A DNA stretch of 64,000 bases from an uncultured Balneolaceae bacterium (GTDB lineage: Bacteria; Bacteroidota; Rhodothermia; Balneolales; Balneolaceae), in the NCBI GenBank assembly GCA_964440655.1, contig CAYTTA010000004.1:30700-94699 (forward strand), in the 5' to 3' direction. Below the pieces are notes generated by a model. That model made no database searches, was not told where the DNA came from, and saw only the letters and a list, made by a program, of their open reading frames with translations. The position numbers were made by a program, and so were the translations under genes. Positions 27,667 through 53,749 of the stretch are shown here, piece by piece (position 1 is the first letter of the stretch; each line of letters begins with the position of its first letter).

Positions 27667-27986
27667 CTGTCTGATCTGTTCTGATCTGTCGCGTTTGTTT
27701 CCCGGTCTGTCCGTAAAGAGTAAAGAGCTGTCCGCAAAGAACGGAAAGAAGCAAAGCTGAAAGTTCCGGTTCCCGTTCCGGCCCGGAATCTGCAGGTGCG
27801 GAACCGTTTACCGCACCCTGCCGCTCCCTCCGGGCCGGAGTCCCGGCAAGATACGAAACCGTTACCAAAGAAGACCGCTGAATGCGCATCCGCAGCCTCT
27901 CCCCCTGCAGGGAATCAGCAGCCTTACTCAGGAGAACTCACTTGGGGCCCGCTTTGCCTCCTACGGTCCGGATCGGTCCTTTTCGG

Positions 27987-29726: not shown

Positions 29727-29727
29727 A

Positions 29728-36683: not shown

Positions 36684-36708
36684 GGGTCGGATCTGGTGGG
36701 GCGATGAA

Positions 36709-38607
36709 TTATGGTCCGGTGTCGGCTCCGGCCGGTCGGGAACGGCTCTTTCCTGAAACGTCTGTGGGATCTGTCGTTACGGCACGGGCCGCTTCATCCG
36801 CCGCGAAGGCTCCGGGTTCCCGGATCCGGTGAGCGCGGTTGGGCTCGGGCCGGTCGATCTGCTGCCGGATTCCGGAAGGCCAGATGATCTCGGCACGCTC
36901 GATCCGGGCATCTCTGCCGAGCCCGAAATGGAGCGGCCTCTGACTCTGGGAACTGAAGGCATCCCCTCCTGCAACGGTTTTCACCTGCACCTGTCCGCCC
37001 CTTTCCGGGGTGCTCCAGTAGAGCCGGAGAGCAGCCCCGATGGCACTTCGGTTGCTCCCGGTTCCCTCCAGGTGAAAAGAGATCCAGTCGTTCTCTTCCC
37101 GGGCATGGTTCCGGTAGATCCGGACCGGTCCGTTCTGGTTGGCCACGATCAGATCCAGAGAGCCATCCCCGTCCAGATCCCCGAAAGCCACCGCCCGGCT
37201 GTCCAGATTGAGCATTCCCCCCACCGCTGCGGCCACCTCTCGAAATCTTCCGGCACCGTCGTTGATCCAGATTTTGTTGTTTTGATACCCGGAGAAGGTG
37301 CGTCCGTTCATGGCCGGCCAGTTCATCGCATCGATGATCACATTCCGGTGCCCGCCCACCACCTTGGCGTAATCGTACCAGTAATCGGTACCCGGTTCGT
37401 CCGATACATAGCCGTTGGCCACATAGAGATCCAGAAAGCCGTCATTGTTCAGATCGGCAAACTGACCGCCATACCCCCAGTCTCCGATCTCCACCCCCAT
37501 GCCGGGAGCGAGGTTTCGGTAACGGATGGTCCCCTCATCACTCCGTCGGGAAGGAACCCAGAGGTTGTTTCCCTGCATCAGCACCCCGGCTTCGGAGATA
37601 TTGGTCACATAGATGGAGAACTCTCCCCGATTCATGATATCCCCGAAGGCAACGCTCATTCCGCTCTTGGGAATGAATCCGATTCCGCTTTCTTCGCTCA
37701 CATTCCGGAATCTGCCTCCTTCATTGAGAAAGAACTCGTCCGCACCGTAGTCATTGGCGATGACCAAATCGGGATAGCCGTTCCCGGTAAGATCAGCCGC
37801 AGCGGCTGCAAGTGTCCATTTTCGGGTGGTCAGACCTGCCTGTTCGGTCACATCGGCGAACCTACCGTCCCCCCTGTTTTCCAGCAGCCAGTTCCGTCCT
37901 CCGTTGGTGGCATACTCATAGCTGTCGGGCATGATCCGGGTTGTGGTGAGATTCCACAGGTCCACATCCTCATGGTAATAGCCGCCGATGAAGAGATCGA
38001 GGAGTCCGTCACCATTGTAATCCAGCCAGACTGCCGTGTTGGCATTGACCCAGTCGGGAAGGCCGGCATTCTCCACGCGGGAGAATCCCTCTCCCCGCTC
38101 ATTCCGCCAGAGCTCCGGACGCCCCCATTTGTAGAGAAAAAGATCCTCGAACCCGTCGTTGTCGAAATCACCCCAGACCGCGCCCATGGAAACCCCGGTC
38201 CCTTCACGGTTCAGGTCCGCGATCCCCAGCTCCCCGGCCACATCACGAAACCCTCCCTCTCCCAGATTGAGATAAAGAGCGTTGTGCGAACCGGACCGGC
38301 TGTTGGTCAGATATAGATCGGGAAGGCCGTCGTTGTTGAAATCAACAATGGAGACCGAGGCCCCTACGGATGCAATCTGGGGAAGGATGTGGTCCAGCCG
38401 TGGGTCGAGCTGCGGCCGCTCGTGAACGAATGTTACACCCCACTCCTCTGAAACCTCCTCCAGATAGAATCCATACCGCTCGATTGCCTGCTCCCGCAAT
38501 TCGAAAATCTCGGGTGCACGGACCTTCTCCAGCCATCGGATCCCGGCAGGAGCCGATAGCAGCAGCAGGAAAAATAGTGTGACCCCTAACTGTTTGATCT
38601 GTAGCAT
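36709..38607 (-). CDS. CRTAC1-family protein (FG-GAP/VCBS repeats plus ASPIC/UnbV C-terminal domain), exported
   Basis: 632 aa with an N-terminal signal/anchor. It has repeated D.NNDG..DL/Y..N motifs (FNNDGLPDLYLTN, DFDNDGFEDLF, DYNGDGLLDLF, DLNNDGFLDLYVAN, DLDGDGSLDLIVAN). The C-terminus (SNRSAIGA.L....G.......GG.FSSQS...LHFGLG) is typical of ASPIC/UnbV. Confidence 0.8.
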   Translation of the reverse strand: MLQIKQLGVTLFFLLLLSAPAGIRWLEKVRAPEIFELREQAIERYGFYLEEVSEEWGVTFVHERPQLDPRLDHILPQIASVGASVSIVDFNNDGLPDLYLTNSRSGSHNALYLNLGEGGFRDVAGELGIADLNREGTGVSMGAVWGDFDNDGFEDLFLYKWGRPELWRNERGEGFSRVENAGLPDWVNANTAVWLDYNGDGLLDLFIGGYYHEDVDLWNLTTTRIMPDSYEYATNGGRNWLLENRGDGRFADVTEQAGLTTRKWTLAAAAADLTGNGYPDLVIANDYGADEFFLNEGGRFRNVSEESGIGFIPKSGMSVAFGDIMNRGEFSIYVTNISEAGVLMQGNNLWVPSRRSDEGTIRYRNLAPGMGVEIGDWGYGGQFADLNNDGFLDLYVANGYVSDEPGTDYWYDYAKVVGGHRNVIIDAMNWPAMNGRTFSGYQNNKIWINDGAGRFREVAAAVGGMLNLDSRAVAFGDLDGDGSLDLIVANQNGPVRIYRNHAREENDWISFHLEGTGSNRSAIGAALRLYWSTPERGGQVQVKTVAGGDAFSSQSQRPLHFGLGRDARIERAEIIWPSGIRQQIDRPEPNRAHRIREPGAFAADEAARAVTTDPTDVSGKSRSRPAGADTGP

Positions 38608-38629
38608 GGCCGGTCTGTTTTCGGACCCT

Positions 38630-41600
38630 TCAATCCACTCTGGCGAGTCTTTCGAGGCTCCGGTCTGCCGGATCCCGATTCAGGACTTCAGGATCCGTTT
38701 CTCCACTCCCCCGCCCGACAGACAAAAGCTTTGCGGATCCAGGTTCTGCGGTCTCTTCGGCCAAACCCTGACTCTTCCGGTCGAACAGAAGAGTGTTGCG
38801 GAATGGACGGGGAGAGACATATCGTGTATGATAATATACCCAATCATCCCGAAACCTCTGAAAAACCGGGTCCTCAAAAAGTGACGTCCCCGAGGGATAA
38901 TCGTAATCGGCCTGCCCGTGCCAGGGAAGCGGCTCCACGGTTGCCGAGGCCTGGGTGTTGATGTCGCCATCCTTGACCCAGCCGTCCGAGATGAAGATAA
39001 AGGTCCGCTTCCACCCCTCTTCCGGCGGCTCCGGTGCCTCATACTCCAGATGAAGCTCATCCCCTGCATTCATGATCACATAGCGGTCATCAATCCCGGC
39101 CAGAAGTTCATCCACCTCGCCGAACCGGGTGTGGAAACCGCGCAGGTCGAGCCATCGCGGGGTGGTCCCGGAGAGAGTGCTGTAGTCGGGCAGCATCGGC
39201 GATCGTTCATCCGGCCGGTACCACCTGGAAAAGCCTCTGTACCTCAATTCCTGCCGGACCGGCCGGAGCGGCCGCTCGACAAAGGAGGCGTCGGGGAGTT
39301 TCTTAGCCCATTCGATGGAGTCCCAATAGATCTCCGACGTGGTGTAAAACCGGATCCGCCGGTCGGAAGGGTCAGGAAACACTCCTTCCAGGTCAAGCAG
39401 GATCGTTTTCAGCTTCCCGGCCGGAACTCCATATTGGTCATGAAGCCTTTTCCAGCCTCCCCTTCCATCGGCCACCTCGATCCTCAGTCCGGAAGGGGGA
39501 TCATGACTCCCCTGGCTCAGGGCAAGGTTGATGGAGCTGTCGGTTGGACGGAGCCAGCCGTAGGCCAGCAGCCAGAGAGGGGCATCCTCCGGAGCTTCAC
39601 TGCCGATCTCAATTTCGATGAAGTGCTCCTCCACCAGCCCCTGCCATTGTGTTTTCCGGAAAGGAGCCAGAAAATCCCCGTCCCTCTTCTCTACATACCG
39701 GGTCACATCCCGTCCTGCGGTGTCGGTCACCCGGCTCACCGGCCGTGGCGTTCCCATGATCCGGGTCGAGAGATCGGGCGAGGGGAAAGCAAAACGCTCA
39801 TCGACAAAAACTTCGGTTCCTTCCGGATGATCGACCGCGATCAGGGAGGTGTGGTCAAAAAAGTGTGTCTCCCAGAGTTCAGCGGTGATTCTCAGGTCGT
39901 AGACACCGTTCACAGGCGCGAGCTTCTCTCCGGGAATCCTGACGCGGTCCAGAGTCTGGACCACCCCGGCGGTCTCCAGGGCATTGATCCGGAGGCCCAA
40001 AGGTGCACGCCAGAGTGCATCGGTGATGAAATGAATCTGCTCGCCATCGTTGGTGAAGAGCCAGGGGCAGGATCCTTTCAGAATCTGCTCATTCTGGATG
40101 GTGGAGCCGACGCCCAGTTCGGCAAATCCGGTCTGGGTCGATCCGTTCGGCCAGATGATGCGGACCAGATCTGCCTCCTCCTGCAGGCCGATCCCGAAAT
40201 GGACGATGGGAGAGCCGATGGGCTGTTTCCGGTAGAGAAGCCCTGCACGGATCTCCATCTCCCCGCCGATCCCGAAAGAGTTGATCCTTCCGTCCCCTTC
40301 CGTGCCGGATGCCCGGGCACGCAGGGAGAGCCCCCGGTAGTCGGGATTTCCGCGGTTCATCAGCCCGAAGGGATTTCCATCGGGATCCACCCCGATCAGG
40401 TCGAGCCGCTCATCCCCGTCCAGATCGAAAACCGAACGAATCCCCCCCGGAAGGGAGATGGCGGCGTGATCGAAGCGGAAACGACTGCTACCCGGATGGA
40501 GCATGCTCCACTCCGGGGTGGCAAGCAGCAGATCGAATGCGCCGTTGTTGTCCAGGTCCTGTACAAAGAGGGAAACCGATCCCCGTCTGTACTCATCCGC
40601 ATCCCGGCCGCTCTCACTCCCGCTCTCTCCCGGAGCCGGGGTGCGCTGGCCTGGAGTTTCCACCAGCCGCTCCTCCGGCCACGGCTCGCCGGGGGGGCGC
40701 GGCAGATAACGGACAATGGAAAGATCCTCGTGGACGGCCAGAACCTCATACTCACCGTCCCCATCCAGGTCGGCTACAGCCACCGTACGAATCCCTCTGA
40801 TCCTGGGGAATGAGGCGATCCGTTCGAAGCGGAGGCCCCGCAGATTGCGAAAGTGAAGAAGCTCTCCCTCATCGGTCAGGAAGAGAGCATCGGTGGCTCC
40901 CTCACCGTCCAGATCCGCCCAGTGAAACTCCACAACGGAGGGGGTGTCCGGAAAGGGAGTGATCGGCGTGAAGGTCCCGTCACCGTTGTTGCGCAGAACC
41001 TGAACATCCCTTCCGGCCGAGGCGAGCAGCAGGTCGAGATCTCCGTCCTGATCCAGATCGGCGGCCCACACCCCGCTCCAGGGGCGATTTCTGATCGATG
41101 CAGGGACTCCGGTATCGGAGGTCACATCGGTGAACGTGCGGTCCGGGTTCTGCCGCCAGAGATGAAAACCGCCTTCCCACGCCATTGCCAGATCATTCAG
41201 AAAATCGTTGTTGTAATCGATCTCGGTCAGGGCGGACGAAGGGATCGGTTCCGGCCCTCCGGCTCTCCCTGAGCTGTCCGTGGATCCCAGCGGGAAAGGC
41301 AGCTGCGTTCCGGCATCGATGTAGAGCCGGGAGTCGTGAAGGGCAACCGGGATGGGAGGAAGCTCTTCCAGCAGGGTCACCGACTGCAGGAGGGCAACCG
41401 GTCCCTCAACGTCGGCAAGAAGATCTGCAGGGTCAAAGGCAATGCCTGTATCGGCTTCGGCTGCAATAAATTCAGGCTGTGGAAGAATAAGAAATCGAGT
41501 AACGGGATACCCCACCTCACCCGGGGGTGGGCGGAGATCCTCCACGCCTGCCTGAAATGAAGGGACCGGCTCAAGCATGTTCCGGAGAAAAGAGAGTTCC

Positions 41601-42328
41601 AGCCGGATCTCATTGAAATCCCCTCTCCCGGCAGCCTCCTCCAGCAGGGAAAGCTGCTCTTGTGCTTCCGGGCTCCAGGATCCGGAAAAGGTCGTCAATG
41701 TTTCGAGCCATCGACGGAATCCGGACAGATCCTCCTCCTTGGCGGTTATACGGGCCAGTTCATAGAGAACCGGCTGATTCTCCGGATCGAGCCGGTGGAG
41801 ACGGAGCAGCTGTTCGCGAATCTCTTCGGCATGTGCGGTGTCATCTTCCCGCTCCAGCTCGGTGGCCAGCGAGTAGAGAATCATTCTGTTATCCGGATCG
41901 GACTCCGCGGCGCGACGGAAATAATCGATCGCGGGTCCTGTGCGGCCCCACCGGCTCTGGAGAAGGCCTGCAAGATGAAGAAGATCGGGGTGATCGGGTG
42001 CCAGTCGGAGAGCCCGTGTGAAGTGCTCCTCCGCCTGTTCAAAGGCGCCCTGCCGCATTGCAAAGAGGCCGAGATTGGCCCAGGCGGCCGCTTCTTCGGG
42101 GAAGGCTTCGGCGACCTGATTCATTTTCTCAAAGGCGAAGAACGCCTCATCGGTCTGCGCGGCCGCCAGACTGATATAGAAATCGGAGACCGCCTGTCTG
42201 TATCTCTCCGAACCGGGATCCACCTCCCCGCTCCGGGAACATCCTGCCGGAATCAACAGAATGAAAAGAAAAAAGATCAGCAACGGCGGGGTGCCGGCAG
42301 GGGGTACAGATAGAAAACGGTTGGTCAT
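38630..42328 (-). CDS. large lipoprotein: TPR region, FG-GAP/VCBS repeats, ASPIC/UnbV-like segment and a ~450-aa uncharacterised C-terminal region
   Basis: The start was set at ATG 42328 (MTNRFLSV...LLIPAGCSRS, with a lipobox) because the longer ORF overlaps eboF. TPR-like helices span roughly aa 60-300. FG-GAP motifs include DYNNDFLNDLA, DLDQDGDLDLLLA, DLDGDGEYEVLAV, DLDNNGAFDLLLA and DLDGDERLDLIGV. An ASPIC-like segment reads NSFGIGGEMEIRAG...VHFGIG...IIWPNG. Confidence 0.8.
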   Translation of the reverse strand: MTNRFLSVPPAGTPPLLIFFLFILLIPAGCSRSGEVDPGSERYRQAVSDFYISLAAAQTDEAFFAFEKMNQVAEAFPEEAAAWANLGLFAMRQGAFEQAEEHFTRALRLAPDHPDLLHLAGLLQSRWGRTGPAIDYFRRAAESDPDNRMILYSLATELEREDDTAHAEEIREQLLRLHRLDPENQPVLYELARITAKEEDLSGFRRWLETLTTFSGSWSPEAQEQLSLLEEAAGRGDFNEIRLELSFLRNMLEPVPSFQAGVEDLRPPPGEVGYPVTRFLILPQPEFIAAEADTGIAFDPADLLADVEGPVALLQSVTLLEELPPIPVALHDSRLYIDAGTQLPFPLGSTDSSGRAGGPEPIPSSALTEIDYNNDFLNDLAMAWEGGFHLWRQNPDRTFTDVTSDTGVPASIRNRPWSGVWAADLDQDGDLDLLLASAGRDVQVLRNNGDGTFTPITPFPDTPSVVEFHWADLDGEGATDALFLTDEGELLHFRNLRGLRFERIASFPRIRGIRTVAVADLDGDGEYEVLAVHEDLSIVRYLPRPPGEPWPEERLVETPGQRTPAPGESGSESGRDADEYRRGSVSLFVQDLDNNGAFDLLLATPEWSMLHPGSSRFRFDHAAISLPGGIRSVFDLDGDERLDLIGVDPDGNPFGLMNRGNPDYRGLSLRARASGTEGDGRINSFGIGGEMEIRAGLLYRKQPIGSPIVHFGIGLQEEADLVRIIWPNGSTQTGFAELGVGSTIQNEQILKGSCPWLFTNDGEQIHFITDALWRAPLGLRINALETAGVVQTLDRVRIPGEKLAPVNGVYDLRITAELWETHFFDHTSLIAVDHPEGTEVFVDERFAFPSPDLSTRIMGTPRPVSRVTDTAGRDVTRYVEKRDGDFLAPFRKTQWQGLVEEHFIEIEIGSEAPEDAPLWLLAYGWLRPTDSSINLALSQGSHDPPSGLRIEVADGRGGWKRLHDQYGVPAGKLKTILLDLEGVFPDPSDRRIRFYTTSEIYWDSIEWAKKLPDASFVERPLRPVRQELRYRGFSRWYRPDERSPMLPDYSTLSGTTPRWLDLRGFHTRFGEVDELLAGIDDRYVIMNAGDELHLEYEAPEPPEEGWKRTFIFISDGWVKDGDINTQASATVEPLPWHGQADYDYPSGTSLFEDPVFQRFRDDWVYYHTRYVSPRPFRNTLLFDRKSQGLAEETAEPGSAKLLSVGRGSGETDPEVLNRDPADRSLERLARVD

Positions 42329-42359
42329 TCGCTCGCTTCGCTCACGTGGTTGCGGACTG

Positions 42360-43736
42360 TCAGGATGTGACGTGGTTATAGATAATATCGTAGATCCCGG
42401 TCGGATCCACCACCGGAATGTCCGGCAGGAATTCGGGATTCCCGGTGGCAACAAGGGGACCGGCTCCCTCTGCGATATCCGCTCTCCCGTGGGAACCCTT
42501 CACGCCGGATCCCTCGATCGGAACGAGATCCATCCGGTAACGGAACCCGAGCTTTTTCCCCAAAACCTTCCGGGCGACTTTGAGCCGCGGGAAGCGGATC
42601 GACGGATTGAGGAGGAGTTCGGCCGGATCGTACCCCGGTTTGGTGTGAATATCCACGGTCGGGGCGAAGTCGGGAGCTTTGGAGTCCGACAGCCAGTAGT
42701 AGTAGGTGAACCAGGCATCCGGTTCGGCAATGGCGACAAGCTCTCCGGCACGCGGGTGGTCCAGGTGGTGGTGCCTTTTTCCCTCCTGGTCGAGGACCTT
42801 CTCCACACCGGGGACCTTCTCGATCAGCTCTTTTACAGGTCCGATCTGCTCATTGTCCCGGATGTAGATGTGTGCGATCTGATGGTCTGCAACCGCAAAG
42901 GCGCTGCTTGATCCGGGAATGAGGACCTCCCCTCCCACCTCCTCCCGGACGGTAATGTAGCCGTGTTTCCGGAGTACTCTGTTCAGGGAGACCGGCCGGC
43001 GGACCGGGGCGATGCCATATTCGGAGAGGAGGATGATCCGGTGTCCAAGCTCCTCATAGAAGCGGATAAGATCCCCACAGACAGCGTCCACCTGGCGAAG
43101 GTCTCTCGTGATGCCGGGATCTTCCGGCCCGATCCTCTGCAGGTTGTAATCCAGATGCGGAATGTAGATCAGCGTCAGAGTGGGATCGAACTCGCGGGTA
43201 ACCCGCCGGGCTGCCTGTGCGATCCATTCACTCGATCGGATGGAGGTGAATGGCCCCCAGAAATCAAAAAGCGGAAAGGTGCCCAGCTCCTTTTGCAGTT
43301 CGTCGCGCAGCGAGGCAGGCTGGGTGAGGATATCGGGGATCTTGACACCGTCCGCCCGGTAGATCGGCCGCGGGGTGATGAGATAATCCACGGTGGAGTT
43401 CATGTTGTACCACCAGAAAAGGTTGGCGCAGGTGAAGCCGGGATCGGCCTCTTTAAGCACCTCCCAGATCTTGGGTGCCTGGATGAGGCGATTGGACTGC
43501 CGCCAGAATTTTATCTCATCCATCTCGCGGAAGTACCACCCGTTTCCGACAATTCCATGGACATCGGGCATCATACCGGTAAGATAGGTCGCCTGTACCG
43601 AGCAGGTGACGGCGGGAAGCATGGGCCGGACCGGACGCATTGCCCCGTTCTTTACCCACTTCTCCAGAAAGGGGGTGTTGCGTCCGATCAGATCGGGGGT
43701 CAGGCCGACCACATTGAGTACGACTGTTCTCTTCAT
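42360..43736 (-). CDS. eboF: alkaline-phosphatase-superfamily nucleotide pyrophosphatase/phosphodiesterase (EboF-type)
   Basis: 458 aa with an NPP-like N-terminus (VVLNVVGLTPDLIG...PAVTCSVQATYLTGMMPDVHGIVGNGWY) that includes the catalytic-Thr context. It has a 4-nt overlap with eboE. Confidence 0.75.
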   Translation of the reverse strand: MKRTVVLNVVGLTPDLIGRNTPFLEKWVKNGAMRPVRPMLPAVTCSVQATYLTGMMPDVHGIVGNGWYFREMDEIKFWRQSNRLIQAPKIWEVLKEADPGFTCANLFWWYNMNSTVDYLITPRPIYRADGVKIPDILTQPASLRDELQKELGTFPLFDFWGPFTSIRSSEWIAQAARRVTREFDPTLTLIYIPHLDYNLQRIGPEDPGITRDLRQVDAVCGDLIRFYEELGHRIILLSEYGIAPVRRPVSLNRVLRKHGYITVREEVGGEVLIPGSSSAFAVADHQIAHIYIRDNEQIGPVKELIEKVPGVEKVLDQEGKRHHHLDHPRAGELVAIAEPDAWFTYYYWLSDSKAPDFAPTVDIHTKPGYDPAELLLNPSIRFPRLKVARKVLGKKLGFRYRMDLVPIEGSGVKGSHGRADIAEGAGPLVATGNPEFLPDIPVVDPTGIYDIIYNHVTS

Positions 43737-45058
43737 CGCTTCTCCCGAAGTCTGTCCAGATTATAGATAATCTGCCCGCATGCCCAGCGAAGCTCCCGTT
43801 CCAGCGAAGAGAGCAGGTTGGGGCCATGCTCCCCGGAGTTTGCCTGTCCCTCTTGTCCGGCCCGTTGTACACCCGTCTCTTCCCTTCCGTTTGCCGCCGG
43901 ACCGGGAAGAACCTCCCAGGTATAGGTCTCCACCTCGTAGTGGCTGCAGCCGCTCTGCTCCAGCAGGACCGGCAAACCCTTTTCGATCTGGTCACGGGTT
44001 GTTTCCAGCTCTCCGAACCGGTCCCGATAGACCGGCAGGTGAAAATGGACCCGCCACTCCTCCGGACGGGCCCTGCCCTCACCCTCTTCTCCGAGCCGGG
44101 AGAGGGCCTCGGGCAGATCACGGTACCGGCAAAGAGTGCCGTTACTGCGCCTCTCCACAACCTGGTGCAGGTAGACTGGTTCATCAAACCGGGAGATGTT
44201 TTCCGAAAATCTTTCTGCCGCAATAGATTTCGACTTCGCTTTCAGAGCGGCGCTTATCTGGACCTTGCCGATCCCGATCCCCTCACGAAGTATCCGCCCG
44301 ATCGCCTCTTCGGGCTCTTCATACCCCACCGCCAGATGGCAGGTGTCGTAGCAGATCCTCACATGCCTCCGCAGGATGGCTTCCGCTGCCGCAGGTGAAA
44401 CTCCCTTCTCGCGGCTCATAAACATGCTTCCGACAGGGAAAAGCTTCTCCGTGAAAAAAACGACCGTCTCCCTGCTCTGCTCCAGTATGCAATCCGGTTC
44501 GGGTTCGATATCCAGATGTAGTTCCCTTCCCGATCTCTGTTCGACAAGGTGCATCTGCCAGGCCACTTCCGCAAGCCGGTGGCAGCACTCCCGGTAGTAC
44601 GCTTCCGGAACAGGCCGGGGAATCTTTCCATACTTGTAGCCGAGCGGGGAGGTGGAGATCCCACCGTCCACCCCCTCCGGAAGGAGCTCTTCCAGGATCC
44701 GTGTCAGATTCAGGGTGTACTCGAGCCTCTGATCGGTGCTCCAGTCCGGTTCATAGACCTGCTCCTTCACCCTGCCGCGATGGAATTGACCGTAGGGAAA
44801 TCCATTGATCGTGAAAAGGTAGAGTCCGTTCTCCTTCATCCAGTCGGAAAACTTCTCCAGACGCCCTTCCTTCAACAGGTCCCGGGCCGCCCGGTCCGAA
44901 ATCCGGACACCCAGCCCGAAAGGTGCATCGGGAGCCAGCCTCTCCCTGAGCGGAGGGATCCAGGTTTTCAGTTCCCCAAAATGTTCGTCCCACTCCTCGC
45001 CAGGATGAACGTTGCTGCAATAGGTCAGATGGAGTGCCGGATTTCCTTCAAGTTTCAT
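43733..45058 (-). CDS. eboE: xylose-isomerase-like TIM-barrel protein (EboE-type)
   Basis: 441 aa with an N-terminal LTYCSNVHPGEEW motif, as I recall for the EboE family. It has 4-nt overlaps with both eboD and eboF. Confidence 0.7.
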   Translation of the reverse strand: MKLEGNPALHLTYCSNVHPGEEWDEHFGELKTWIPPLRERLAPDAPFGLGVRISDRAARDLLKEGRLEKFSDWMKENGLYLFTINGFPYGQFHRGRVKEQVYEPDWSTDQRLEYTLNLTRILEELLPEGVDGGISTSPLGYKYGKIPRPVPEAYYRECCHRLAEVAWQMHLVEQRSGRELHLDIEPEPDCILEQSRETVVFFTEKLFPVGSMFMSREKGVSPAAAEAILRRHVRICYDTCHLAVGYEEPEEAIGRILREGIGIGKVQISAALKAKSKSIAAERFSENISRFDEPVYLHQVVERRSNGTLCRYRDLPEALSRLGEEGEGRARPEEWRVHFHLPVYRDRFGELETTRDQIEKGLPVLLEQSGCSHYEVETYTWEVLPGPAANGREETGVQRAGQEGQANSGEHGPNLLSSLERELRWACGQIIYNLDRLREKR

Positions 45059-46227
45059 GAGTTGAACTGTTTAAGCTCTTCGCATGCAGCCAGATAGATC
45101 TCTTCATCCACCTGGTTCACCTCCAGGCCGGTTCCGATTGCCTGAAGGAGCATGATGGTGAGCTCACCACCCAGATGTTCACGGAACTCCTCCAGTCCTT
45201 CCAGTAGCGGCGCCTTTCCGTTTCGATTGCCGCATCCCTCCATCCCGGGGTGATGAAGCCGGAATCCCAGGCTTGCGAGCAGACGGAGGATCCTCCTCTT
45301 GCTCTCTTCCGGCAGCAGACCGGCGAGAGCGGAGTAGGTCACATCCAGAGCGATTCCGATCGCCACCGCCTCTCCGTGACGAAGATCGTATCCGCTGAGC
45401 TGCTCCAGTTTGTGGGCCGCCCAGTGCCCGAAATCGAGCGGACGGGAGGAACCGGACTCAAACGGATCCCCCGAACCGGAGATATGTTCCAGATGAAGTT
45501 CGGCGCAGCGGTAGATCAGCTCCTCCATCGCTTCCATTCTTCGCTCTCCCAGTGCCTCCCTCAGCTCCTCAATCCGGTTGAAAAAACCTGCATCACGGAT
45601 CAGAGCGACTTTTACTGCTTCGGAAATCCCCGAGATCCAGTCCCGCTCTTCCAGCGTGGTCAGGAACGAAGAGTCGTTCAACACGGCATGGGGAGGTACA
45701 AACGTTCCGAGAAAATTTTTTTTCCCATAGGCGTTGATTCCGTTCTTCACCCCGATCGATGCATCGTTCTGTGCCAGAACCGTCGTAGGGATGCGGATCA
45801 GCCGGATGCCGCGATGTGCGATCGCCGCGGCGAATCCCACGGTATCGATCAGGGATCCTCCCCCGACCGCCGCCACAAAGGAGTGCCGGTCCATCCGGTT
45901 TCGCTCAATGGCATCGAGTATCCGCCTAAGCTGTTCCGGATCGTTTTTGGACTGCTCCCCGCCCGGAACAAGAAGCGGAGGATCCACCAGTTCGAAGAGC
46001 GGTTCCCCCCTCCGCTCCCACTCTTCACCATAGTTCCGGATCTTCCGGAACAGGTCCGGATGATGCCGGGCCATTCCCTCATCCAGGACCACCAGCAGGC
46101 GCGGCAGCGCCCGGCCGGATCGGCGGAACGAACCGGCAAGTACCGGATTGGCAGGATTGAAAAGATCCCTTGTAAAATGAACCGGATAGTGAAAGGAGAC
46201 GGCAATGTTCTGCTGGATGATCTTCAT
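45055..46227 (-). CDS. eboD: 3-dehydroquinate-synthase-like sugar phosphate cyclase (EboD-type)
   Basis: DHQS core: VAAVGGGSLIDTVGFAAAIAHRGIRLIRIPTTVLAQNDASIGVKNGIN plus metal-binding His residues (HWAAHKLE). The start was set at ATG 46227 (MKIIQQNIAVSFHYPV). Confidence 0.8.
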   Translation of the reverse strand: MKIIQQNIAVSFHYPVHFTRDLFNPANPVLAGSFRRSGRALPRLLVVLDEGMARHHPDLFRKIRNYGEEWERRGEPLFELVDPPLLVPGGEQSKNDPEQLRRILDAIERNRMDRHSFVAAVGGGSLIDTVGFAAAIAHRGIRLIRIPTTVLAQNDASIGVKNGINAYGKKNFLGTFVPPHAVLNDSSFLTTLEERDWISGISEAVKVALIRDAGFFNRIEELREALGERRMEAMEELIYRCAELHLEHISGSGDPFESGSSRPLDFGHWAAHKLEQLSGYDLRHGEAVAIGIALDVTYSALAGLLPEESKRRILRLLASLGFRLHHPGMEGCGNRNGKAPLLEGLEEFREHLGGELTIMLLQAIGTGLEVNQVDEEIYLAACEELKQFNS

Positions 46228-46345
46228 GCTGATGTCAGACAGAATAGACAGTTCGCGATAAATCAACGGAAGATGACCGGCCAAACTCCTATTTTTGCCT
46301 CTTTCAACGGTCACTCTTCACCCCACTCCTGAAATCGCCAACCCT

Positions 46346-47308
46346 ATGAGTACCCGGATTATATACAGAAAAAATACACATTTTCTAAGCTGTGACTGGG
46401 GAACCAGTTCATTCCGGCTGCTGCTCGCCGGGCGAGACAGCGGCGAAGTGGCCGCTGCTCTCTCCTCGGCCAACGGTGCAAAAGAGGTCTACGGAAGATG
46501 GAAGGAGCAGAAGAAGGTTGATCAGACAACCTGGTTTCTCCGGTTTCTGGAGGAGAAAATCGGGGAAATGGAACGGCAGGTTTCAGCCGATCTGAGTGAG
46601 ATACCTGTCATCGTCTCCGGCATGGCATCCTCCACCATCGGCATCAAGAGCCTCCCCTACTCGCCGGTTCCTCTGGATCTGGCCCGTCCCCGCCTGCAGT
46701 ACGAGAGATTCTCCGGCGATGAGATCTCCAATCCGGTGCTGCTCGTCTCGGGAGTCTCCACTCCGGAGGATGTGATGCGTGGGGAGGAGGTCCAGCTGAT
46801 GGGACTGCATCGGGTCTACGGCCTGGACTCAGCCCTCTATCTGCTTCCCGGCACACACAGCAAGCATCTTTTCGTTGAAAAGGGAAAGCTGACCGGTTTC
46901 CGGACCTATATGACGGGGGAGATCTATCAGATCATCGGAACACACTCTATTCTGCAGGCCGGCCTGGACCGGCCGGAGAAGGGGCCCGACCGGGAGAGCT
47001 TCCTGCAGGGAGTTCGTGAGGCAAGGGAGGGCAATCTTCTGAACTCGCTTTTTGCCATCCGGGCCCGCGAGCTGGTCGGCAGTCCGGACGATCCCGCTTC
47101 ACGCTCCGACTATCTCAGCGGACTGCTGATCGGAACCGAACTCCGGGATCTCTCCTCCGCCGGTGAGGTGATTGTCTCGGGCGGAAGCTCACTGCAGGCA
47201 TACTATACCCTTGCACTGGAAGAGCTTGGCATCCCCTTCCGGACCGATCCCGATCCCGCCCGCCGCACTCTGGACGGGCATCTTCAGCTGCTTCCAATGC
47301 TGGAATAA
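46346..47308 (+). CDS. dgoK: 2-dehydro-3-deoxygalactonokinase-like sugar acid kinase
   Basis: The DgoK-type N-terminus FLSCDWGTSSFRLLL and a length of about 320 aa. The start was set at ATG 46346. Confidence 0.7.
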   Translation: MSTRIIYRKNTHFLSCDWGTSSFRLLLAGRDSGEVAAALSSANGAKEVYGRWKEQKKVDQTTWFLRFLEEKIGEMERQVSADLSEIPVIVSGMASSTIGIKSLPYSPVPLDLARPRLQYERFSGDEISNPVLLVSGVSTPEDVMRGEEVQLMGLHRVYGLDSALYLLPGTHSKHLFVEKGKLTGFRTYMTGEIYQIIGTHSILQAGLDRPEKGPDRESFLQGVREAREGNLLNSLFAIRARELVGSPDDPASRSDYLSGLLIGTELRDLSSAGEVIVSGGSSLQAYYTLALEELGIPFRTDPDPARRTLDGHLQLLPMLE

Positions 47309-47391
47309 TAAGGTCTGCACCAAACACTTTCCCGGATCTGAATCCATCAGGCCTGCAATGGATCGAGTGGCTCCAGCCGGGCCTGAACCGG

Positions 47392-48036
47392 TCATGCCTG
47401 AACCAGGTCCAGCGACTGGCGAACAATCTTGCGGATCCCTTCAAAATCCCGGTTCTCCAGAAGCTTCGAAGGCACCAGCCAGGAACCACCCAGAGCGGCC
47501 ACCATCGGATACCCGAGATACTCTTCCAGATTGGAGAGATTGATCCCTCCCATCGGGATGAAGAGAACCCCCGTATGGCGATAGGGTCCCTGGAGGCTCC
47601 GGATAAAATCGGTTCCGCCCAGATTATTGACCGGGAAGAGTTTCTGAAGGAGCAGATTCCGTTCCAGTGCCGCCTCGATCTCGGAAGGGGTCATCACCCC
47701 CGGAATGAATGGAAAATCGAGTTCCTCCGCCTTGTCGAGGACCGTTGGATTGAAACCGGGAGCCAGACCGTAGCGGGCACCCGCCCCGATCGCCTCCTCC
47801 ACCTGCCGGGGGGAAAGGATGGTTCCGGCACCCAGATTCATCTCGGGAAAACGGCTGGAGATGGCCCGTATCGCTTCTGCCGTCGCTTCGGTGCGGAAAG
47901 CCACTTCCATGGTATCCAGCCCCTCTTCCAGCAGGAGTTCGGCCAAGGGGACGGCCAGTTCGGGATCATGCAGGGTCACTGCGGGCAGGAGTTTCTTTTC
48001 AAACGTGAGGGGCATCTTTTTTTCCTGTTGTTTCAC
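47392..48036 (-). CDS. eda: KDPG / KDPGal / 4-hydroxy-2-oxoglutarate aldolase (Eda family)
   Basis: 214 aa with an Eda-like pattern: LPAVTLHDPELAVPLAELLLEEGLDTMEVAFRT, GAGTILSP.Q and FIPGVMTPSEI. A Schiff-base Lys context lies near KLFP. Confidence 0.85.
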   Translation of the reverse strand: MKQQEKKMPLTFEKKLLPAVTLHDPELAVPLAELLLEEGLDTMEVAFRTEATAEAIRAISSRFPEMNLGAGTILSPRQVEEAIGAGARYGLAPGFNPTVLDKAEELDFPFIPGVMTPSEIEAALERNLLLQKLFPVNNLGGTDFIRSLQGPYRHTGVLFIPMGGINLSNLEEYLGYPMVAALGGSWLVPSKLLENRDFEGIRKIVRQSLDLVQA

Positions 48037-48090
48037 TTATGGTGGTGACGGGAGCGAGAATCCGGAACGAATTCATCTTCTCTCAACGGT

Positions 48091-49101
48091 TTGAAAGTTT
48101 ATACCGAATCCTCCATTTTTACAAACCGATCCGGCTCCATCCTCCAACCAAATCCTCCCGATGTGATTAACCTCCCCGATCCACCACCCGATCCCGGTCC
48201 TTCCGGTCCGGACCATCCCCGGGACAGCGTCGATGAACTGAAGAAGCGGATGCTTGTCTGGCTCGGGGAGCGGCTCGATTCCCCGGCATTCGAGAAGATT
48301 GAAACGGCTGCACGGAGGATGGAGGGCGCGGAGGAGTGGGAACTCTTCACCTCATTCAGCTCGGTACCCCGCTGGACCGGAAAGAGTCTGCTTGGACTCT
48401 CCTCTACCGAGGAGGACGAGGCGGATCGGCTTGTGAACGGGTGGAAACCCGGCAGATGGAGCCTGGACCAGCTGGGCCGTACACTTCTGGTACTCTCCCT
48501 GGCACGCAGAGGAAAAGAGAAGTTTTTTGATCTGCTGGAGAAACTTTTCCTTTCGGCCGATGCGGGAGAACAGGTTGCTCTCTATCAGGCTCTTGCCGTA
48601 CTTCCCTGGCCGGAAGAGCATCAGAGGCGGGCGGCCGAAGGGATCCGCAGCAACATGAGTCCGGTTTTTCAGGCGGTCGCTCTCCACAATCCCTGGCCTG
48701 CCCTCTACTTTCCGGAGGATGCATGGAATCAGATGATTCTCAAGGCTCTCTTTATCGGTGTGCCGCTCTGGCAGGTGGAGGGGATCGACCGCAGACGGAA
48801 CGAAAAACTGGCCGGAATGCTGATCGACTTTGCCCAGGAACGATGGTCGGCCGGAAGAGAAGTTCCCCCCGAACTCTGGCGTATGGTGGCTCCTTTCATG
48901 GATGATGACCGTGTCCGGGACATTGCCAGGCTTCTGCATCATCCGGAAGAGCTCCAGAGGCAGACGGCCCTTCTGGCTCTTACCGCCTCCGAACTGCCTT
49001 CTGCACGGACCCTGCTGGAAGCGGCCTCCCGAAGCGGCCAGCTGAAGAATCTTCCCGACTGGGATGAAATCGGCCGGAGGGCGGCGGCTCTTTCCGGATG
49101 A
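48091..49101 (+). CDS. eboA: EboA-like protein (start uncertain: TTG 48091 or ATG 48250)
   Basis: An alpha-helical ORF immediately upstream of the TatD-type and UbiA-type genes, which is the position EboA takes in ebo clusters. The call rests mainly on synteny. Confidence 0.5.
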   Translation: MKVYTESSIFTNRSGSILQPNPPDVINLPDPPPDPGPSGPDHPRDSVDELKKRMLVWLGERLDSPAFEKIETAARRMEGAEEWELFTSFSSVPRWTGKSLLGLSSTEEDEADRLVNGWKPGRWSLDQLGRTLLVLSLARRGKEKFFDLLEKLFLSADAGEQVALYQALAVLPWPEEHQRRAAEGIRSNMSPVFQAVALHNPWPALYFPEDAWNQMILKALFIGVPLWQVEGIDRRRNEKLAGMLIDFAQERWSAGREVPPELWRMVAPFMDDDRVRDIARLLHHPEELQRQTALLALTASELPSARTLLEAASRSGQLKNLPDWDEIGRRAAALSG

Positions 49102-49153
49102 TGGAAAGTGCCGTTCCACTTCAGATAACCTCCAACTTATCCTTCTGCACGTC

Positions 49154-50107
49154 ATGACAGCCTCCAGATCCTCCGACCCGATGATTTTCATTGATCCCCA
49201 TATCCATATGATCTCCCGCACCACCGACGATTACCGGGCTCTTCAGCAGGCGGGTGTGGTGGCGCTCATTGAGCCTGCCTTCTGGATCGGACAGCCCCGG
49301 ACCAACGTCGGGTCGATGATGGATTACTTCAGCACGATTGTGGGGTGGGAACGGTTCCGTGCCAGTCAGTTCGGCATCCTCCACTACTGCACGATCGGGC
49401 TCAATGCCAAGGAGGCGAACAATGAAGAGCTGGCGGAGGCCACCATGGAGCTGCTGCCACGCTATGCGGCAAAGGAGGGTGTGGTGGCGATCGGGGAGAT
49501 CGGATTTGATGACATGACCTCTCTGGAGGAGCGTTATTTTCGCCTTCAGCTCGATCTGGCCCGTAAGATGGAGATGGTGGTGATGGTCCACACCCCCCAC
49601 AGGAACAAGAAAGAGGGCACGCTTCGCAGTATGGAGATCTGTCTGGAGCAGGGGCTGGACCCATCGATGGTGGTGATCGATCACAACAACGAGGAGACCG
49701 TAAGGGAAGTGCTCGACCGGGGATTCTGGGCCGCTTTTTCCATCTATCCCGGTACCAAGATGGGCAATGAGAGGATGGTCGAGATTGTCCGGACCTATGG
49801 AAGTGAACGGATCATGGTGGACAGTGCCGCCGACTGGGGCCAGAGCGATCCTCTGGCGGTTCCGAAAACTGCACGGCTTATGCTTCAGCGGGGTATACCG
49901 GAAAAGGATGTGCGGAATGTATGCTACCGGAATGCCCTGGATGCCTACAGCCAGGGCGGACGGATGAGTGAAAAGGATTGGCTGAACCGCCCCCCGATCG
50001 ATCAGAGAGATACCTGGAACGGAAATTCCATACTGAGAGGCGGTGTGGAACCCTATGTCGAAAGCATGGACCCCGGCAGAGAAAGCGACGACCTGATCAT
50101 CCGCTGA
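49154..50107 (+). CDS. eboB: TatD-family metal-dependent hydrolase (EboB-type)
   Basis: MIFIDPHIHMISRT (the HxH metal motif of the amidohydrolase/TatD fold), VAIGEIGFD and MVHTPH. The start was set at ATG 49154. Confidence 0.75.
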   Translation: MTASRSSDPMIFIDPHIHMISRTTDDYRALQQAGVVALIEPAFWIGQPRTNVGSMMDYFSTIVGWERFRASQFGILHYCTIGLNAKEANNEELAEATMELLPRYAAKEGVVAIGEIGFDDMTSLEERYFRLQLDLARKMEMVVMVHTPHRNKKEGTLRSMEICLEQGLDPSMVVIDHNNEETVREVLDRGFWAAFSIYPGTKMGNERMVEIVRTYGSERIMVDSAADWGQSDPLAVPKTARLMLQRGIPEKDVRNVCYRNALDAYSQGGRMSEKDWLNRPPIDQRDTWNGNSILRGGVEPYVESMDPGRESDDLIIR

Positions 50108-50151
50108 TCATCCGCTTATCTTCAACCGATCATCAACACAACCGTCGCACC

Positions 50152-51174
50152 ATGGAGTCGACTCAAACCGGCAGCAGGAAGCTCTCTTTTTCCCTCAGGG
50201 CCTGTCTGGAGCTGATGCGCCCGGCGAATATTGTCACCGCCTTTGCCGACATACTGGCGGGCTATTTTGTCGCCCGGGGCGTTCTCCTGTCGGGGCGGAA
50301 CCTCCTGTTTTCCAGCGGGATGAACCCTTCCGGAGCCTCCCTGTCGGAGAGCCTCTCGGAATCTTCCATTCCTGCTCTATTCACCGACATCGGAGAAATG
50401 ATGCCCGGGGCTTTGCCCTGGCTCCTGCTCGCCACATTGGGTCTTTATGGGGGCGGGATAGTCTGGAATGATGTGATGGACAGCGAAATCGACCGGATTG
50501 AACGACCGGAACGGCCGATTCCCTCGGGACGGATTCCGCGATGGGGAGCCGCCTTTCTGGGCACCTCTCTTCTTCTGACGGGGATCGCGGCGGCCTGTCG
50601 GGTTCATCCCGGTGCCGGCGGGATTGCTCTGGCTGTTGCGTTGCTCTCTCTGACGTACAACCGGTATGCCAAGCACTCCTCTGTTGCAGGTCCGCTTGTA
50701 ATGGGACTCTGCCGGGGAGGAAACCTCCTTTTGGGGATGGCCGCTGTGCCAGGCATGCCGGCAGGAATGTGGCCGGTCGTCCTGCTGCCGGTGATCCACA
50801 TCTCCGCGGTCACCCTTGTCAGCCGGGGGGAGGTCTCCGGCGGGAGCCGGGTCTCCGGAATGCTCGCAACCGCTCTTGTCCTGACCACCGGGTTCTTGCT
50901 GATCCTTCTCACTCTGGTTTTGCGTTCCGGTGCGTCGCCAACCGCCCTTCCCTTCGCCCTGCTCTTTCTTGCGGCGCTGCTCCCCCCATTCTGGCGTTCT
51001 GCACGTGATCCGAAACCCGACCGGGTCCGGAGGGCAGTGAAACGGGGTGTTCTGGGGCTGATTCTTCTGAACAGTTCTCTGGCTGCCACCTGGTCGGGTC
51101 CTCTAGCGGGGCTGCTGGTGATCCTGCTCCTGCCGGTCTCCCTGCTGCTGGCCAGGTATTTTGCCGTAACCTGA
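50152..51174 (+). CDS. eboC: UbiA-family prenyltransferase (EboC-type)
   Basis: 340 aa and polytopic, with the first Asp-rich motif NDVMDSEIDRIERPERPIPSG. The start was set at ATG 50152 (MESTQTGSRKLSF...). Confidence 0.8.
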   Translation: MESTQTGSRKLSFSLRACLELMRPANIVTAFADILAGYFVARGVLLSGRNLLFSSGMNPSGASLSESLSESSIPALFTDIGEMMPGALPWLLLATLGLYGGGIVWNDVMDSEIDRIERPERPIPSGRIPRWGAAFLGTSLLLTGIAAACRVHPGAGGIALAVALLSLTYNRYAKHSSVAGPLVMGLCRGGNLLLGMAAVPGMPAGMWPVVLLPVIHISAVTLVSRGEVSGGSRVSGMLATALVLTTGFLLILLTLVLRSGASPTALPFALLFLAALLPPFWRSARDPKPDRVRRAVKRGVLGLILLNSSLAATWSGPLAGLLVILLLPVSLLLARYFAVT

Positions 51175-51190
51175 CTTCAACCACCCCCGG

Positions 51191-51781
51191 TCAGGTGGCC
51201 CAGGTCCTGCCGATCTCCTCAAAGGGAACACAGCCGTCATACCGGCCGGGGACCGCCTCATATCTCAGGACCTGCGTCGCCCCCGGTTCACTGGTGAAAT
51301 AACCGAGCATGGTCAGCTCCTTCATGGTGAGGAAGAAGCGATCCACCGGCTCTCTGCCACCCGTTACGGCTGCACGGTTGCATTGGGAGGCTACCTCAAA
51401 CTGCAGTTCCGAAGAGAGATCGATGAAGGAGTCTCCCTGCTCTTCACGTACTTTGCGGTCAAAGAGATCGAGCCCCTCGACAAACCGCTCTCTTGCATCT
51501 TCCGTATAGATTTCGGTAATCATCTGCTCGATAAATGAGGGCACCCCCGCCTCTGAAGCTCCCGGTGTCTCGCCGGAAGGAATGATGACGTCGGCGAGAC
51601 GTGTAAGCAGTCGGGCTTGCTGCGGATTGAAAAACCGCGGAGACCACTCCACTCCAGGACGGGCCTTGCATCCGCTCATCACGCCCAGAATATGGGGTGT
51701 TAAAAGCAGTCCGCCCATCAGGAGAGCAGTGCGCCGTATCGCTTCCCTCCTGCCGAGAAGCTCCCCCTTCAAGGCATTCAT
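51191..51781 (-). CDS. gluconate 2-dehydrogenase subunit 3-family small subunit with a twin-arginine signal
   Basis: MNALKGELLGRREAIRRTALLMGGLLLTPHILGVMSGC is a TAT-like signal. The small size and adjacency to the GMC flavoprotein fit the family. An alternative upstream start is at 51910. Confidence 0.7.
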   Translation of the reverse strand: MNALKGELLGRREAIRRTALLMGGLLLTPHILGVMSGCKARPGVEWSPRFFNPQQARLLTRLADVIIPSGETPGASEAGVPSFIEQMITEIYTEDARERFVEGLDLFDRKVREEQGDSFIDLSSELQFEVASQCNRAAVTGGREPVDRFFLTMKELTMLGYFTSEPGATQVLRYEAVPGRYDGCVPFEEIGRTWAT

Positions 51782-51922
51782 TTCGGCACCGTTGTTTTCG
51801 GAATCCGTTCCTCCAGAAATGTCATGGCCGGTTGCGGATGAAATTTGCCGGGGTGTTGCGTTATCCGGATCATTTTCCGGTCGGAGTTCAGGTCGGAGAT
51901 GTCTCTTCATGATCAGGAAAGG

Positions 51923-53620
51923 CTACAGGTTCAGTCTGTTCAGTTCTTTGACGGCATGATCGACCGCCCGCGCGGTGAGTGCCATGTAGGTGAGGGAAGG
52001 ATTCTGGCAGGCGGATGAGGTCATGCAGGCTCCGTCTGTTACAAAGACGTTGGGTACGGAGTGAATCTGGTTCCAGCTGTTGAGAACGGAGGTGCGGGGA
52101 TCTCTGCCCATCCGGGCGGTGCCCATTTCATGGATTCCGTGACCGGGCGGAACGGCGTTGTCGTAGGTGGTGACATTGCGGAATCCGGCAGCCTCCAGCA
52201 TCTCGGCTGCATCGTTGGCCATATCCTTCCGCATGCGTCGTTCATTCTCCCCGAACTCACATTCGATCACCAGCGTCGGTTGACCCCACTTGTCCTTCCG
52301 GTCATGATTGAGCCAGACCCGGTTCCTGTGATCGGACAGCATTTCACCGAAAGCGGTCATTCCGACCGACCACTGGCCCGGCCGGGTCACGAGCTCCTTG
52401 AGCTCCTCTCCGATCGCCATCTCCCGTACTCCTCGCCACCACCCTTCCCGGCTCGCCCCGCCCTGGTAGCCGAAGCCACGCAGATAGTCGCGGTCGTTCC
52501 GTTCCACGTTGCGGTATCTCGGGATGTAGAAGCCGGCCGGCCGGCGACCGTAATAGTAGCGGTCGGGATAGAGGTCGCTGGTGGCATTGGCCCCCACACG
52601 AAAATGGTGATCCATCAGATTGTGTCCCAGCTCCCCGGAGTCATTGCCCAACCCATGAGGAAACCGGTCGCAGGTGGAGTTGAGAAGGATGAGTGTGGTG
52701 TTGAGGCAGGATGCGTTCAGGAAGATGATACGGGCATAGAACTCCATCTCCTCGAGGGTCTCGGCATCGATCACTCTCACACCGGTGGCCCTGCCAAGCT
52801 CCCGGTCATAGATGACGGAGCTGACCACCGAGTGAGGTCTCAGTGTCATCTTACCGGTCTTCTCCGCCGCAGGCAGCGTTGCCGCATTGCTGCTGAAATA
52901 GGCGCCATAGGGACAGCCCCGCATGCAGAGATTCCGATACTGACAGGAGCCCCTTCCCATATGGGGGCGGGTCAGATTGGCCACCCTTCCGGGGGTCAGG
53001 ACCCGGCCGAATTTCTCTGCCATACTCTGCCTGAGGTAATTCTCCAAACAGTTCAGGCCGATGGGAGGCAGAAACTCTCCGTCCGGCAGCTGGGGTAGTC
53101 CTTCCGCCTGACCTGAAATACCGGCAAACTTCTCCACGTAGTCATACCAGGGCGCCAGGTCTCGGTAGCGGATCGGCCAGTCGACGCCAATGCCGTCCCG
53201 CAGGTTGGCTTCGAAGTCGAGATCGCTCCATCGGTAGCTGTGGCGGCCCCACATGATCGAGCGGCCGCCGACATGGTAGCCGCGGAACCAGTCGAACGGT
53301 TTGGCCTCCTCGTAGGGCTGGTCGGCATCCTTGAGCCACCAGTGTCTGGTCGACTGCCTCAGGGTGTATCCTGCACGTTGCTGAACCGGATACTCTTTCA
53401 GCTCTTCCGCGGTGAGCCGGTCGTTGTAAGGAAGCTCCCAGGGGGCTTTGGTTGCCGTCGGATAATCAAGAACATGACGGACATTCCTCCCTCGCTCCAG
53501 AACCAGAGTATTCAGTCCCTTCTCCGTGAGCTCTTTCGCAGCCCAGCCTCCGCTGATCCCGGTACCCACAACGATCGCATCGTAGCTGTTCTGTTTGCGG
53601 GCTTTCAGGTTGAGATTCAT
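51923..53620 (-). CDS. GMC-family FAD oxidoreductase, no signal peptide of its own
   Basis: YDAIVVGTGISGGWAAKEL is the FAD GxGxxG motif, and C-terminal HEMGTARMG is the GMC active-site His region. The start was set at ATG 53620 so that the upstream terminator stays intergenic. Confidence 0.85.
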   Translation of the reverse strand: MNLNLKARKQNSYDAIVVGTGISGGWAAKELTEKGLNTLVLERGRNVRHVLDYPTATKAPWELPYNDRLTAEELKEYPVQQRAGYTLRQSTRHWWLKDADQPYEEAKPFDWFRGYHVGGRSIMWGRHSYRWSDLDFEANLRDGIGVDWPIRYRDLAPWYDYVEKFAGISGQAEGLPQLPDGEFLPPIGLNCLENYLRQSMAEKFGRVLTPGRVANLTRPHMGRGSCQYRNLCMRGCPYGAYFSSNAATLPAAEKTGKMTLRPHSVVSSVIYDRELGRATGVRVIDAETLEEMEFYARIIFLNASCLNTTLILLNSTCDRFPHGLGNDSGELGHNLMDHHFRVGANATSDLYPDRYYYGRRPAGFYIPRYRNVERNDRDYLRGFGYQGGASREGWWRGVREMAIGEELKELVTRPGQWSVGMTAFGEMLSDHRNRVWLNHDRKDKWGQPTLVIECEFGENERRMRKDMANDAAEMLEAAGFRNVTTYDNAVPPGHGIHEMGTARMGRDPRTSVLNSWNQIHSVPNVFVTDGACMTSSACQNPSLTYMALTARAVDHAVKELNRLNL

Positions 53621-53714
53621 CGGCTTGATCCGTTTCCGTGGTTTGCTGCGGACAAGGGATCCACAGCGATACGCAAATCCCACAATCGGAAAGAAAAGGA
53701 AAAGAAACAATATC

Positions 53715-53749
53715 AAAAAAAAAGCCCGTCACTGGGATCAGGACGGGCT
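53715..53749 (-). terminator. Rho-independent terminator downstream of the RidA/CBM9/BASS gene string
   Basis: Minus strand reads AGCCCGTC-CTGATCCCAGT-GACGGGCT followed by TTTTTTTTT. It lies about 45 nt after the stop of the RidA gene at 53795. Confidence 0.7.

Follow-up and report, generated by a model that had tools for sequence, protein, structure and literature searches.

The ebo operon was defined by Yurchenko et al. (2016; PMC5133447) and occurs as a collinear eboABCDEF cluster in Bacteroidota, Cyanobacteria and eustigmatophyte plastids. The same study catalogued variant gene orders (ABDEFC, FABDEC and DECABF), clusters with one gene reversed, subsets located apart from each other, non-ebo inserts and unclustered planctomycete genes (PMC5133447). 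We analysed an ebo locus in a 64,000-nt stretch of DNA (the window) from an uncultured Balneolaceae bacterium (assembly GCA_964440655.1, contig CAYTTA010000004.1, positions 30,700 to 94,699). The window holds the same six gene families as the collinear operon, in the same order within ABC and within DEF, but its two triplets face apart with two non-ebo genes between them, and its EboA, like Balneolaceae EboA in general, is extended to approximately 300 aa compared to a family model of 219 positions. The locus is very probably an intact ebo set, organised in at least two outward-pointing transcription units (eboDEF and eboABC), with a split inherited from one ancestral inversion. Neither Balneolaceae nor Rhodothermia are mentioned in the 2016 paper or its supplements (PMC5133447), or in the main text of a 2026 preprint on the ebo product (10.64898/2026.05.21.724671).

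In that preprint, Kallscheuer et al. (bioRxiv, May 2026) assigned the ebo genes to thallusin, an algal morphogen. All 27 thallusin producers tested carried ebo genes and the 8 non-producers did not, single deletions of eboB, eboC, eboE or eboF in Stieleria maiorica abolished thallusin production, aspartate was incorporated, hydroxyquinaldates were farnesylated by EboC, and 3,403 clusters were surveyed for architecture (10.64898/2026.05.21.724671). The EboD product had been published in 2024, as cited in PMC12904256. A preliminary description of this DNA had called the ebo product chemically undefined, which these two reports make outdated. In the pathway drawn from this literature, EboE, EboF, EboA and EboB would act together with L-aspartate to form a hydroxylated quinaldic acid, which EboC would farnesylate, and possibly cyclise, to saccharoquinoline and then thallusin. 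The four genes of the core, eboB, eboC, eboE and eboF, are all present in the window, and its product may be of the thallusin type. The genes of the window match the Bacteroidota-type producers, whereas its layout differs from the 'Bacteroidota-type' operon (10.64898/2026.05.21.724671).

Other described systems resemble the locus in part. In Planctomycetota (Stieleria maiorica Mal15) the ebo genes likewise lie outside a single operon; they are, however, scattered completely and usually lack eboA, whereas the window keeps all six within 9 kb as intact triplets. The Nostoc-type arrangement eboD< >eboABC-EF (L083, L097) is partly divergent like the window, although only eboD is inverted. Cyanobacterial inserts between eboC and eboD occupy the same junction as in the window, but carry scytonemin-related tyrA, dsbA and a glycosyltransferase and not dgoK/eda (PMC5133447). 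Counterparts of all six ebo genes are likewise found in the EDB cluster of Pseudomonas fluorescens NZI7 (PMC12904256), but in another gene order and with three extra genes; this cluster has been tied to nematode repellence and indole derivatives. Proteobacterial ebo genes fall far from the window in the Ebo tree described below.

Six ebo genes in two opposed triplets

The source assembly is a metagenome-assembled genome (MAG) of 2.4 Mb in 80 contigs with 96% completeness. Positions 42360-51174 of the window contain eight genes, consisting of the six ebo genes together with dgoK and eda (Table 1). The ebo genes lie within 8.8 kb as opposed triplets, eboF, eboE and eboD on the minus strand and eboA, eboB and eboC on the plus strand, with 1.9 kb between them that hold the two non-ebo genes. 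Coordinates, profile matches and cluster identities thus bear out the earlier claim that all six ebo families occur within 9 kb. The orientation of the two halves was also as first described; the halves are not adjacent, however, and the intervening dgoK and eda had gone unmentioned.

Protein identities were assessed against NCBIfam and Pfam models, comparing bit scores to model cut-offs. EboE passed the ebo-specific model NF035939 (449 vs. 250 bits) and is encoded by a single-copy gene in the genome. EboC passed NF035940 (334 vs. 250 bits) and its Asp-rich motif NDVMDSEID was confirmed; every other UbiA-family or prenyltransferase model scored far below its cut-off, which separates the protein from MenA and UbiA as originally proposed, and from ChlG. 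EboA passed the domain model NF035938 (176 vs. 50 bits). EboD passed NF004852 (557 vs. 333 bits) and failed the aroB model TIGR01357 (219 vs. 305 bits), and a separate true aroB (306 bits) is located on contig 34 of the same genome, so that the proposed separation of EboD from AroB holds. The presence of this aroB also rules out EboD as the sole dehydroquinate synthase (DHQS) of the genome.

For the remaining two proteins no EboB-specific or EboF-specific model was matched in these NCBIfam and Pfam searches, which returned only generic TatD models for EboB and only Pfam Phosphodiest for EboF. Their identity is supported by comparison with other clusters. Compared with their counterparts in a collinear Maribacter eboABCDEF operon, the six window Ebo proteins show 34-70% identity, with EboB at 70% and EboF at 56%. 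EboB shares 63-77% identity with the gene that separates eboA from eboC in clusters from six phyla, and is considered orthologous because of this identity at the eboA-eboC position; the matches at 70-77% come from several phyla and include the Maribacter operon. EboF is 55-73% identical to the EboF of other ebo clusters. The nearest EboB-bearing records were Balneolaceae MAGs, Rhodohalobacter and Fodinibius roseus DSM 21986.

All six open reading frames (ORFs) are open, with no stops. Alignment with 34-37 cluster-encoded homologues gave 347 columns conserved at 95% or more, and the window proteins retain 339 of them. Retention was complete for EboF (76/76), EboD (92/92) and EboA (20/20), and reached 66/67 in EboB, 22/23 in EboC and 63/69 in EboE, where the other six are conservative changes. 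The eboD ORF is open up to 46314, with homologue alignments beginning at ORF residue 30, an ATG. The eboA ORF is open from TTG 48091, but Balneolaceae homologues align from ORF residue ~40, and GTG 48163 is therefore the likely start.

The genes eboD and eboE overlap by 4 nt, as do eboE and eboF, which suggests translational coupling. The orientations of the genes imply at least four promoters in 46228-48162. A sigma-70 promoter scan of 42000-51500 returned four sites compared to 2.3±1.5 expected, a chance result under a model that does not cover Bacteroidota-type promoters, and the 118-bp spacer between eboD and dgoK gave no signal above chance with the same model. No convincing shared regulatory motif was found in 14 Balneolaceae ebo spacers. 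The best 9-mer, TTTTTACAA, was present in 5 of the 14 and was not considered significant because the spacers are 25-32% GC; it lies at 48112-48127 in the window and in the ebo spacers of L013, L020, L100 and L022.

Gene order in relatives and the origin of the split

The genome positions of EboE and EboC were compared over 201 Balneolaceae genomes, and the eight window proteins were mapped onto fetched loci of relatives. EboE was present in 36 genomes, belonging to 13 of 43 genera, and 25 genomes carried eboE and eboC on one contig. The genes are thus linked in related genomes, where the preliminary description would have taken a lack of linkage as a refutation. The divergent arrangement FED<>ABC was found in 22 of these 25, including the cultured Fodinibius roseus DSM 21986 (L023), whose two halves have a 470-bp spacer between them. 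The eboE-eboC distance was 3.4-4.1 kb in 17 of the divergent cases, corresponding to a spacer of 0.2-0.5 kb; two (the window genome, G000, and G055) had dgoK inside the junction, and three (genus g34) had 13-42 kb between eboE and eboC. The remaining three genomes (genus g47) displayed a tandem DEF>...ABC> arrangement on one strand with an F-to-A gap of 2-9 kb. A collinear ABCDEF order was found in none of the 25. The junction between ABC and DEF thus holds 0.2-42 kb in Balneolaceae, while the triplets themselves are never broken.

A 400-genome sample of the phylum yielded 21 non-Balneolaceae genomes with both eboE and eboC. In 19 of these, eboC lay upstream of eboE at a distance of 1.2-1.5 kb, with both genes on one strand as in the collinear layout; one had an eboC-eboE gap of 163 bp, too small for eboD, and in one the two genes were 395 kb apart. 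FED<>ABC was found in none of the 21, and among 80 loci from many phyla it was confined to Balneolales. The back-to-back 3+3 layout is the standard Balneolaceae architecture, an ordinary lineage variant that is not peculiar to the window genome. The split had been presented as special to this genome, which does not stand given the 22 divergent Balneolaceae and the variants already catalogued in 2016 (PMC5133447).

A concatenated alignment of EboB, EboD, EboE and EboF (38 rows, 1521 columns) was used to infer an unrooted tree (IQ-TREE, LG+G4, 1000 ultrafast bootstraps and SH-aLRT). All 13 Balneolaceae rows fell on one side of a branch (support 100/100) and grouped with collinear Rhodothermales and Salinibacteraceae (98/98). 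Sister to the window was L022 (the locus of G055; 99/99), and the tandem g47 clusters were nested within the Balneolaceae clade. Most likely, an ancestor of the Balneolaceae ebo lineage underwent a single inversion of one triplet of a collinear ABCDEF operon, and the layout has been inherited since. The triplet junction would then have turned into a place that tolerates insertions and additional rearrangements, with the order within the triplets fixed, and a secondary re-inversion in g47 would account for the tandem DEF...ABC layout. Because the tree is unrooted, the direction of these layout changes is something we infer.

A split operon could alternatively be a decaying remnant, broken, no longer co-expressed and heading for loss. 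The patchy presence of ebo in Balneolaceae (36 of 201 genomes) indicates that losses do happen, only ABC is visible in one Rhodohalobacter relative (L019), and G104 gave split matches for eboB, eboC and eboD. Against these stand the six open ORFs and the conserved columns they retain, the maintenance of the split layout with intact genes in at least eight genera, and the planctomycete ebo genes, which work though scattered (10.64898/2026.05.21.724671); we regard decay as quite improbable. It is more improbable still, to the point of being negligible, that errors of assembly or binning produced the split or the insert. The MAG is divided into 80 contigs, but the entire locus lies within one contig, far from the contig ends, the same layout recurs in 21 other genomes, among which are an isolate and some with chromosome-scale contigs, and this insert, with these flanks, recurs on the 540-kb contig of L022.

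Several points weigh against an intact set in two transcription units with a single inversion behind it. The expectation that the candidates would match ebo-specific models was borne out for EboE, EboC and the EboA domain, but EboA scored 274 bits against the full-length model NF035937, under its cut-off of 320. The sole non-conservative change in the conserved columns is a Tyr to His in EboC (ORF residue 274). The two transcripts, eboDEF and eboABC, are predicted from gene orientation and spacing, and an intrinsic-terminator scan of 42000-51500 gave seven sites compared to 8.8±3.1 expected, which is chance. One inversion is the history that explains the unrooted tree most parsimoniously, and not a demonstrated event. 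The thallusin assignment comes from a preprint whose main text names no Balneolaceae strain among those tested (10.64898/2026.05.21.724671).

Variant layouts were also observed in individual relatives. L019 (an uncultured Rhodohalobacter) shows eboABC and no other ebo genes in the 10 kb to each side, and in G549, of the same class as the window genome, eboC lies 395 kb from eboE; the halves can therefore separate fully in relatives. L098 (G104), L104 (G069) and G041 (genus g34) have 10-42 kb of unrelated genes at the ABC/DEF junction, including SusC/SusD-like and sigma/anti-sigma-like ORFs. The split matches of eboB, eboC and eboD in G104 suggest frameshifts or long-read errors. G016 carries eboE and eboC in two copies each on different contigs (C214, C171, C46), probably a strain mixture and no true duplication, given a completeness of 71% and a contamination of 4%. 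L012 (G034) and L016 (G028), from another family of the same order, contain a one-strand five-gene cluster eboD-B-E-C-F in which eboA was not detected. In the Ebo tree the branch of this cluster is very long (0.72), and the cluster's EboC is just 26% identical to that of the window; it is a distinct ebo-like lineage.

Table 1. Genes and spacers of the ebo locus, with positions counted along the window
Feature	Position	Strand	Description	Model match
eboF	42360-43736	-	NPP/alkaline-phosphatase superfamily, 458 aa	Pfam PF01663 Phosphodiest, 221 bits
eboE	43733-45058	-	Xylose-isomerase-like TIM barrel, 441 aa	NF035939 TIM_EboE, 449 bits
eboD	45055-46227	-	DHQS-like sugar phosphate cyclase, 390 aa from ATG 46227	NF004852, 557 bits
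eboD/dgoK divergent spacer	46228-46345		118 bp	
dgoK	46346-47308	+	2-keto-3-deoxy-galactonate kinase, non-ebo insert	PF05035, 202 bits
eda	47392-48036	-	KDPG/KHG aldolase, non-ebo insert, convergent with dgoK	TIGR01182, 206 bits (vs. 156)
eboA	~48163-49101	+	~312 aa from the likely start GTG 48163	NF035938 EboA_domain, 176 bits
eboB	49154-50107	+	TatD-like metallo-hydrolase, 317 aa from ATG 49154	PF01026 TatD_DNase, 66 bits
eboC	50152-51174	+	UbiA-type prenyltransferase, 340 aa from ATG 50152	NF035940 EboC, 334 bits
Three genes 3' of eboF	35811-42328	-	TPR/FG-GAP lipoprotein, 1232 aa; FG-GAP/ASPIC protein, 632 aa; RnfD-like membrane protein, 290 aa	

The dgoK/eda insert

The dgoK and eda genes converge with a gap of 83 bp, and the locus therefore has two divergent spacers and not one common spacer, between eboD and dgoK (118 bp) and between eda and eboA (~55-125 bp). 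Within the ebo spacer, dgoK was found only in the window genome and in genus g48 (G055 and G075). The proteins of the window and L022 are 42% (dgoK) and 50% (eda) identical, having diverged as much as the ebo genes themselves, and the L022 insert additionally carries an Nramp-family transporter. The window dgoK is the only DGOK match in its genome, while a second eda is present on contig 7. The pair would have been inserted once, in the common ancestor of the window genome and g48.

Similar genes occur away from ebo in other Balneolaceae. In G008 a convergent dgoK> <eda pair of the same kind stands apart from all ebo genes, and in G102 and G127 dgoK forms part of a dgoD-dgoK-gntP string with a convergent eda, far from ebo. 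In other genera the same junction is occupied by unrelated genes, among them those for a HAD hydrolase, SusC/SusD-like proteins and oxidoreductases. Neither GC content nor skew is anomalous across the locus. Horizontal gene transfer was rejected as the source of the insert on the basis of this uniform composition and of dgoK/eda homologues native to Balneolaceae. As the pair also occurs away from ebo, the junction content varies and no compositional anomaly is present, the insert appears to reflect passive use of a permissive junction.

A functional coupling of dgoK/eda to ebo, by shared bidirectional control or by feeding or draining a pathway intermediate, was also considered. With shared control, synthesis of the ebo metabolite would be regulated jointly with the utilisation of 2-keto-3-deoxy sugar acids, such as those from algal polysaccharides. 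The retention of the insert in two lineages as diverged as the window and L022, the very short shared spacers, and a dgoK that is the only copy in the genome all speak for such a link. The junction lacks the pair, however, in the 20 remaining divergent Balneolaceae clusters and in every other phylum sampled, the pair occurs far from ebo in G008, G102 and G127 (as a convergent pair or as dgoD-dgoK-gntP plus eda), and unrelated genes fill the same junction elsewhere. Furthermore, the pathway model uses mannose-6-phosphate and aspartate and not pyruvate/KDG-type units (10.64898/2026.05.21.724671). We therefore consider coupling unlikely.

A more far-reaching version, in which the eboD/dgoK and eda/eboA wiring switches a thallusin-type signal on with sugar-acid catabolism and ABC and DEF are two biochemical sub-modules, has an equally slim chance of being correct. 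If it were true, the wiring would provide a built-in 'alga nearby' cue that responds to 2-keto-3-deoxy sugar acids from algal polysaccharides. In broader terms, no Balneolaceae cluster breaches the ABC/DEF boundary, which may mark sub-modules for cyclitol formation and then for condensation and prenylation.

Elsewhere in the genome, contig 17 (~27400-32700) carries at least four tandem enolase-superfamily dehydratase paralogues, the best of which is 49% identical to galactonate dehydratase DgoD, and contig 54 carries a further tandem set of enolase-superfamily dehydratases.

Flanking genes and implications for Balneolaceae

From eboF through the lipoprotein, FG-GAP/ASPIC and RnfD-like genes the intergenic gaps are 31, 22 and 25 nt, and these three genes may share the eboDEF transcript as a 10-kb unit. 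Among the loci compared, the lipoprotein gene adjoins eboF only in the window and L022, and the three genes are not conserved ebo members. On the other side, convergent with eboC, a gluconate-2-dehydrogenase-subunit-3-like protein and a GMC oxidoreductase are encoded on the minus strand (51191-53716). Both genes adjoin eboC in L013, L026 and L106, while only the subunit-3-like gene is found beside eboC in L018 and L022; the GMC gene is seen wherever the contig reaches. These conserved neighbours may merit attention because the oxidation of saccharoquinoline to thallusin has no assigned enzyme (10.64898/2026.05.21.724671).

The split had been proposed as a natural dissection of which ebo genes must be co-expressed. 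This argument is weak, as planctomycetes with scattered ebo genes make thallusin and have already been used for single-gene deletions (10.64898/2026.05.21.724671); splitting is thus already known to be compatible with function. Variant layouts are known and the co-expression question was treated before with planctomycetes, so that the locus raises no new question; what it adds is the family-wide modularity of ABC and DEF. The predicted makers of the ebo product now include the Balneolaceae, a halophilic and marine family related to the Bacteroidota, and Fodinibius roseus DSM 21986 is a cultured member of it. In this family ebo consists of two stable triplets that have been inverted, placed 2-42 kb apart or interrupted, yet not lost, and their stability offers a modest hint as to which pathway genes need tight coupling.

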